A stretch of DNA of 64,000 bases, from assembly GCF_051903065.1 (NCBI RefSeq), contig NZ_CP178438.1; one strand, given 5' to 3'. Each line of letters begins with the position of its first letter. Positions within the stretch are counted from its first letter, which is position 1. Under the pieces are notes generated by a model that saw nothing but the letters and a program-made list of their open reading frames with translations, had not been told where the DNA came from and searched no databases. Source of the DNA: Escherichia coli. Lineage in GTDB: Bacteria; Pseudomonadota; Gammaproteobacteria; Enterobacterales; Enterobacteriaceae. A program made the position numbers and the translations under genes. Positions 28,122-28,644 of the stretch are shown here, piece by piece.

Positions 28122-28644
28122 GATATTCCCTTCCATCGGTTTTATTGATGATGGTTTGCCTGTGTCAGGAGCCACACAAGCCGCTCATGTACGAGCTAAA
28201 TGTTACTCCGTTAAAATAAATTAGTAACAAACGCCCTATAACGTACTGAAAATTATGCCTGTGATCTAGCGCCAAAAATCAGTATTTCGGCGTGAACTCG
28301 CAAAATATTAACGATTCAGCCGTGATAGTGGGATAAACACCTTAGAACGCCGGATAAAGACTGATAATTGTCTTCGACGGTCGGGTAAAACGAGACATCG
28401 CCCCGGCACGAATCACTACTTAACATTAAATTAACTTATACAATTCAGTTGCTTCAGTAGTAATGATGCTGATACGGCTGTTTTTTAAGCATAGACGGTC
28501 ATTTGAGCAGGATTAAAAATGACTTAAGGAATGTGATATGAAAAATGACGCAGACAGTTACACCGTTTAAATGCAATAATCAGCCACGTTTCTCGTTAAT
28601 AACAATACCAGTACCTGGTTTGCGCAAGGCGAAGGATTATTTTT

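Follow-up and report, generated by a model that had tools for sequence, protein, structure and literature searches.

The 523-bp spacer between pntA and ydgH of Escherichia coli is very probably a divergent promoter and regulatory region, in which two short-leader promoters lie about 395 bp apart and the DNA between them binds regulators. The ten-codon frame in it, which an earlier note on this DNA had called uORF-like, belongs to the ydgH promoter. Positions below are those of the 64-kb stretch of DNA that was analysed (the window).

Geometry, composition and conservation of the spacer

The minus-strand gene pntA has its ATG at 28121 and the plus-strand gene ydgH starts at 28645, so the spacer comprises 28122-28644 (523 bp). 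It is equally 523 bp in K-12 MG1655, whose current annotation shows no feature inside the spacer, although validated small proteins such as mdtU are included in that annotation. Bases 28000-28800 were 100% identical to those of E. coli strain 23CRST027, and the pntA–ydgH region was found in 5423 of 5426 complete genomes. The G + C content was 39.8% in the spacer, with a minimum of 31% over 28420-28538; the window as a whole had 50.1% and the flanking genes 51-53%. It was the longest of 48 intergenic gaps in the 50 kb of annotated sequence around it, the second-longest divergent spacer being 255 bp, and the longest ORF wholly within it was no more than 36 aa. The description given earlier, a 523-bp AT-rich divergent spacer with no ORF above the cutoff, was thus confirmed on each point. 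K-12 coordinates were converted as window = v2 - 1,647,806; the conversion was fixed because the table of Kim 2012 puts the ydgH CDS at v2 1676451, versus 1678427 in v3.

We aligned the spacers of 45 Enterobacteriaceae species from approximately 25 genera, with loci retrieved using YdgH; 41 of these species were non-Escherichia. The conservation analysis across Enterobacteriaceae that the earlier note had suggested came out in its favor, with both spacer length (489-548 bp, median 524) and sequence blocks kept in the 45 species. One third of the spacer (173 of 523 positions) was at least 90% conserved. The 4-fold degenerate sites of the flanking genes were essentially saturated, with identities to E. 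coli of 0.48 in pntA and 0.42 in ydgH. The blocks below are given with their mean identity to E. coli over the 41 non-Escherichia species.

28122-28158, minus strand: pntA proximal leader, identity 0.81
28213-28270, minus strand: pntA upstream block, identity 0.80
28421-28435, minus strand: ArcA box, identity 0.91
28538-28587, plus strand: ydgH promoter, identity 0.79
28588-28644, plus strand: ydgH 5'UTR, identity 0.85
28619-28644, plus strand: the 26 nt preceding the ydgH AUG, identity 0.98

The length, AT-richness and cross-genus conservation of the spacer are real. Longer spacers of 631-1952 bp were present upstream of ydgH in Intestinirhabdus, Phytobacter massiliensis, some Buttiauxella and Dryocola (loci L020, L063, L076, L078 and L082); confined to a few genera, they imply insertions into an otherwise length-conserved region. 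No period-3 variability was detected anywhere in the spacer, where the score was 0.2-1.5 versus 7-9 in the flanking pntA and ydgH CDSs. This test was used instead of blastp clustering of all short ORFs in the 45 spacers, in which the conserved DNA blocks drew the ORFs together into giant clusters.

The ydgH promoter and the ten-codon frame

The features of the ydgH promoter and of the frame that overlaps it are as follows.

28538-28570, plus strand: "uORF-like" frame atgaaaaatgacgcagacagttacaccgtttaa (MKNDADSYTV*, 33 nt, 10 codons), at -50 to -18 of the ydgH promoter
28539-28588, plus strand: ydgH core promoter, sigma-70-type, from the scan, the TSS and conservation
28540-28548, plus strand: A-tract (UP-like) GAAAAATGA of the ydgH promoter
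28551-28556, plus strand: -35 CAGACA of the ydgH promoter, with an 18-bp spacer to the -10
28572-28580, plus strand: extended -10 TGcAATAAT (TGCAATAAT), with TSS G28588 8 nt after the -10

The E. coli TSS table in the supplement of Kim 2012 (PLoS Genet) lists one ydgH TSS, at K-12 v2 1676394; it is supported by 76 reads and gives a 5'UTR of 57 nt. After coordinate conversion this TSS falls on G28588, and the -50..+1 string given for it there is ATGAAAAATGACGCAGACAGTTACACCGTTTAAATGCAATAATCAGCCACG, whose first bases are the ATG of the 28538 frame. A promoter scan of 27900-28900 returned the ydgH site as its only sigma-70-type match (9/12, with TG); it reads CAGACA-18-AATAAT with TG upstream, and the TSS lies 8 nt past the -10. 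Three runs in the promoter (28539-28546, 28549-28556 and 28570-28581) were 96-100% conserved in the 45 species. The Salmonella ydgH reporter of Fröhlich et al. 2016 was built from -58, which is independent support for a 58-nt leader. The long ydgH leader that the earlier note had suggested is thus contradicted in both organisms, with 57 nt in E. coli and 58 nt in Salmonella.

The tiny frame noted earlier does exist, although it starts at 28538, one base before the reported 28539, and in E. coli it is preceded by AAGGA 7 nt before its ATG. Relative to the TSS at G28588 the frame runs from -50 to -18, so all of it is promoter DNA upstream of the transcript. It overlaps the A-tract and the -35 and stops two bases short of the extended -10. 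The aligned start codon was GTG in 25 species, ATG in seven and TTG in three, and the remaining ten had no start codon (GCA, CTG, GTT or GTA). An SD-like motif upstream of the frame was found in five of the 45 species, comprising four Escherichia sequences and one by chance, and in another Escherichia lineage the SD of the frame was weakened to AAGAAG. The conserved motif within the frame is TGAAAAAT-NN-CGCAGACAG, in which NN corresponds to positions 1-2 of codon 4 and position 3 is invariant; this substitution pattern is the reverse of a coding pattern. The period-3 score over the frame was 0.2-0.9 versus 7-9 in the flanking CDSs. Neither the coordinate nor the peptide of the frame appears in one sORF supplement of Stringer et al. 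2021. A 10-codon frame with a start codon alone is not beyond chance. Together these results show that the uORF-like frame of the earlier note (28538-28570) is not a uORF; its codons come from reading through the A-tract, the -35 and some of the spacer of the ydgH promoter. Like leader peptides and regulatory uORFs, among them the mdtU frame ahead of mdtJI in the same window, it is a very short frame in front of a gene, with an ATG and an SD-like AAGGA; it differs from them in lying upstream of a mapped TSS, in not being kept as an ORF and in having no coding pattern.

The ydgH leader

The transcribed leader of ydgH contains the following features.

28588-28644, plus strand: ydgH 5'UTR, 57 nt, with a CA-rich stretch (28596-28606, conceivably a GcvB target), a small hairpin and a nearly invariant 3' part
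28607-28619, plus strand: small hairpin ACCAG-TAC-CTGGT in the ydgH leader
28619-28644, plus strand: near-invariant TTTGCGCAAGGCGAAGGATTATTTTT, 98% identity, with the SD AAGGA at 28632-28636

The TTTGCGCAAGGCGAAGGATTATTTTT stretch contains the palindrome TTGCGCAA, and its 98% conservation in 45 species of approximately 25 genera goes far beyond the needs of an SD. Searches of TTTGCGCAAGGCGAAGGATTATTTTT for structure, covariation and SdsR pairing gave nothing that accounts for its near-invariance. In Salmonella, a ydgH(-58..+60)::gfp fusion is subject to post-transcriptional repression by the sRNA SdsR (Fröhlich et al. 2016). The energy of the SdsR–ydgH duplex, both full-length and seed-restricted, was no better than that of shuffles (73% of shuffles were as good), and the sole 7-bp contiguous SdsR seed match in the E. 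coli leader is not conserved in Salmonella, where regulation was shown. The near-invariance of TTTGCGCAAGGCGAAGGATTATTTTT is thus only partly explained, because no convincing or conserved SdsR pairing site was located. The ydgH leader resembles the Hfq-dependent sRNA target leaders of the SdsR regulon in that the Salmonella -58..+60 segment confers SdsR-dependent repression and in the conservation of the 26 nt before its AUG, which exceeds SD requirements; it differs from them in that no pairing site could be identified.

A search of 27000-30000 against Rfam with a permissive threshold gave no match even at E <= 1. Folding compared with shuffled sequence gave z = -0.60 and +0.12 (ydgH 0.12), so that neither leader was over-stable, and none of the five pairs predicted by RNAalifold from 21 ydgH leaders covaried. 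There is no sign of a riboswitch, a structured leader RNA or an sRNA gene in the spacer.

The pntA leader and promoter

The pntA side of the spacer, read on the minus strand, is divided as follows.

28122-28158, minus strand: proximal pntA leader with the SD GGAAGGG at 28134-28128; 81% identity, runs 28124-28137 and 28149-28157
28159-28212, minus strand: variable, length-polymorphic distal leader with the curated TSS and -10; 29% identity, many indels
28193, minus strand: curated pntA TSS C28193 (v2 1675999), 72-nt leader, from the Fig. 4 legend of PMC6090065
28205-28200, minus strand: curated -10 TAACAT, matching TSS 28193
28213-28270, minus strand: nearly invariant upstream block; 80%, runs 28224-28232 (100%), 28237-28253 and 28260-28268
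28218-28213, minus strand: possible alternative -10 TATTTT, in the invariant block
28227-28222, minus strand: -35 TTACTA, inside the invariant block
28260-28268, minus strand: half-site TGTGATCTA (TGTGATCTAG over 28260-28269), conserved, in the invariant block

The position of the pntA TSS follows from the Fig. 4 legend of PMC6090065, which gives the distances of two adaptive SNPs from it (+62 and -49): it lies at v2 1675999, window 28193, with a 72-nt leader; here too the long leader suggested earlier does not hold. The +62 SNP (v2 1675937, window 28131) lies within the SD GGAAGGG and arose in two of three gnd-knockout lineages, and the -49 SNP (window 28242) lies in the invariant block and raised pntA approximately 9-fold; in the three independent gnd-knockout lineages pntA mRNA increased 4- to 9-fold (PMC6090065). 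In another evolution study, every BL21 lineage also mutated the pntA–ydgH spacer.

A -10-like hexamer at the position of the curated TAACAT was present in only 22 of the 45 species. No pntA TSS is listed in the E. coli table of Kim 2012. The same table assigns low-read starts inside pntA to pntB, and places ydgI starts within ydgH and in the ydgH-ydgI gap (window ~26879-26891, ~29196 and ~29698).

The pntA leader of Escherichia also carries an inverted repeat, CCTGTGTCAGGAGCCACACAAG (28159-28182), which the MFE fold shows as an 8-bp hairpin and which contains a 2-mismatch CRP-like palindrome (28161-28178). The repeat is absent from other genera, in which this stretch varies in both sequence and length. 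The 2-mismatch matches to a CRP site at 28161-28178 are thus Escherichia-specific.

Regulator sites between the two promoters

Two sites in the DNA between the promoters match known regulator motifs.

28421-28435, minus strand: ArcA box GTTAATTTAATGTTA with direct repeats at an 11-bp spacing; it lies upstream of both starts, 235 bp from that of pntA and 160 bp from that of ydgH
28307-28320, minus strand: Cra (FruR) operator-like site GCTGAATCGTTAAT, in the region 28298-28320, overlapping a weak ArcA motif

The strongest conserved island in the middle of the spacer is TTAACATTAAATTAAC, the complement of which is GTTAATTTAATGTTA. This sequence agrees with the ArcA consensus GTTAATTAAATGTTA at 14 of 15 positions and was the only match with at most one mismatch in the window, where 0.02 were expected. 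Federowicz 2014 reported exactly this 15-mer (v2 1676227-1676241, p = 6e-8) under ArcA ChIP peaks that span window 27900-28490, together with a weak ArcA motif at window 28298-28312 (p = 4e-5) and ArcA "activation" of pntAB. At 160-235 bp from either start, the box is unusually far away for a direct activator. An ArcA ChIP peak with motifs was also reported in the ydgC/rstA divergent spacer, at window 31736-32548 (Federowicz 2014).

The Cra-like site GCTGAATCGTTAAT has zero mismatches to RSTGAAWCSNTHHW, the consensus of Cra (FruR), and is the only such match in the 64-kb window; the chance expectation for a perfect match was 0.51 per window and approximately 0.004 for the spacer. The site (AACGATTCAGC) was conserved only in Escherichia, Citrobacter and Salmonella. 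According to PMC8085971, Cra bound the spacer in SELEX and represses pntAB in vivo.

Matches to the Lrp consensus YAGHAWATTWTDCTR were found only with three mismatches, at 28212-28226 and 28246-28260, and such matches are common (111 found vs 87 expected). Control of pntAB by Lrp, ArgP and Crp is said to have been described by Haverkorn van Rijsewijk in 2016, with CRP reportedly a regulator of pntAB. In a published ChIP-qPCR experiment, Lrp was enriched 2.8-fold upstream of pntA, with positive regulation; this signal falls in the invariant block 28213-28270. A complete CRP site (TGTGA-N6-TCACA) at TGTGATCTAG (28260-28269) was rejected, as it has one good half and gave no match at two or fewer mismatches.

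One further conserved block lies between the ArcA box and the ydgH promoter.

28478-28495, strand not assigned: T-tract block TGTTTTTTAAGCATAGA, in the alignment part of a longer block conserved in non-Escherichia genera

No motif assignment was found for 28478-28495. The non-Escherichia genera share the block CTGGTCAAGCGCCTGTTTTTTCAACATATCACTAAATGTTATC (aligned to window 28466-28507, L007-L082), which has TGTTA/AACAT inverted elements and is largely lost in Escherichia. Readings of the TGAAAAATnnCGCAGACAG block as a sigma-54, sigma-32, CpxR or RcsB site were rejected by eye, as key consensus bases are missing.

Alternative explanations

Under the model of the earlier note, ydgH, pntA or both would have a long leader or an extra distal promoter, and the 10-codon uORF would be translated and modulate ydgH. 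The ATG of the Escherichia frame and the AAGGA 7 nt upstream of it are as this model would have them, and an RNAP-sigmaE SELEX peak has been reported at v2 1676254 (window ~28448), near which a weak sigmaE-like TTAACTT-16-TCAGT (28431-28458) would put the frame in an approximately 180-nt leader. However, the -10 of this sigmaE-like motif is a poor one and lacks conservation, and the only ydgH TSS in the E. coli table of Kim 2012 (28588) is downstream of the frame; the Salmonella start is at -58. The ATG is replaced by GCA, CTG, GTT or GTA in 10 of the 45 species, the SD is absent outside Escherichia, and conservation follows the promoter elements, not codons. The frame is also unannotated in K-12 and absent from one sORF supplement of Stringer 2021. 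We therefore consider this model very unlikely. A version limited to envelope stress or another condition, in which a distal (sigmaE-like?) promoter would produce a long-leader ydgH mRNA and a recently born, Escherichia-specific uORF within the housekeeping promoter would be translated and couple ydgH to translation or ArcA occupancy, appears more improbable still. The sigmaE-like sequence at 28431-28458 shares bases with the ArcA box, and the RpoE-holoenzyme SELEX peak at ~28448 is close to it. A small RNA or small protein missing from the annotation, encoded in the conserved mid-spacer, would agree with the conserved islands at 28420-28445 and 28478-28495, the longer non-Escherichia blocks and the conserved spacer length. 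Nevertheless, no Rfam match was obtained at E <= 1, no period-3 signal was seen, and no promoter/terminator pair was found, the sole terminator-like match being the complement of the ydgH leader hairpin (one found, 1.0 expected); moreover, the best island is the ChIP-supported ArcA box, and the blocks are short and divided by indel-rich sequence. Of the readings weighed here, we give this one the least credence.

For pntA, no part of the spacer is less conserved than the one with the curated TSS and -10 (a -10-like hexamer in 22 of 45 species), and the main start may therefore lie elsewhere, e.g., at ~28206 from TATTTT. In such an arrangement, a main or additional pntAB promoter in the invariant block would consist of the -35 (G)TTATAG at 28241-28236 and the -10 TATTTT at 28218-28213, with the TGTGATCTAG half-site activating from -61.5 (class-I CRP geometry), and 28193 would be secondary or specific to Escherichia and Salmonella. 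All of the proposed elements, unlike the curated -10, are invariant in the 45 species; the adaptive SNP at 28242 adjoins the proposed -35; and, by arithmetic, the half-site is centred at -61.5 only with this TSS. On the other side, both hexamers are weak, a search allowing two mismatches does not find the CRP site, of which only one half is good, and the literature uses the curated TSS at 28193 (PMC6090065). We regard this arrangement as a tentative alternative to the curated start, with the balance of evidence against it. Because the DNA around the curated -10 is not conserved, pntA may have a second start. The multiple promoters of the earlier note are unproven, the E. coli table of Kim 2012 containing a single ydgH TSS. 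That note had also linked its proposal to conservation of the spacer and to transcript 5' ends away from the gene-adjacent promoters; the spacer is indeed conserved, but all known 5' ends are gene-proximal. That the spacer is a complex divergent regulatory region is supported by the length and the blocks conserved in 45 species.

A regulatory region of ordinary kind

In the divergent promoter region that we favor, ydgH is transcribed from the sigma-70 extended -10 promoter at G28588 with a 57-nt leader, as the mapped TSS and the promoter elements show, and pntAB starts at ~28193 with a 72-nt leader, as curated from published work. ArcA, Lrp and Cra bind the spacer according to published data, and the ~395 bp between the two starts would be DNA bound by proteins that adjust the expression of pntAB and perhaps of ydgH. 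The likely inputs are redox via ArcA, amino-acid supply via Lrp, carbon flux via Cra and possibly CRP. Purifying selection on the regulator sites, on both ribosome-binding regions and on the sRNA-targeted ydgH leader may have produced the block-wise conservation and the fixed spacer length, and the AT-richness would be the usual composition of promoter or architectural DNA.

Like other multi-regulator divergent control regions of E. coli, the spacer has back-to-back short-leader promoters and AT-rich upstream DNA with global-regulator sites. Nothing essential differs from those regions, although the inter-TSS distance of ~395 bp and the ArcA distance of 160-235 bp are on the long side. Published ArcA ChIP peaks and motif, an Lrp ChIP signal and Cra SELEX binding already exist for this same spacer. 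The pntA–ydgH spacer is an ordinary regulatory region, largely documented already, with nothing new in kind.

The value of the analysis is that a false uORF lead was removed and that the length of the spacer was found to reflect regulator-binding DNA, not long leaders. The ydgH gene influences susceptibility to beta-lactams and detergents; the near-invariance of its leader hints at post-transcriptional control that has been conserved. pntAB supplies much of the NADPH of E. coli; its spacer is a recurrent target of adaptive mutation and metabolic engineering, and a base-level map of its conservation is therefore of practical use.
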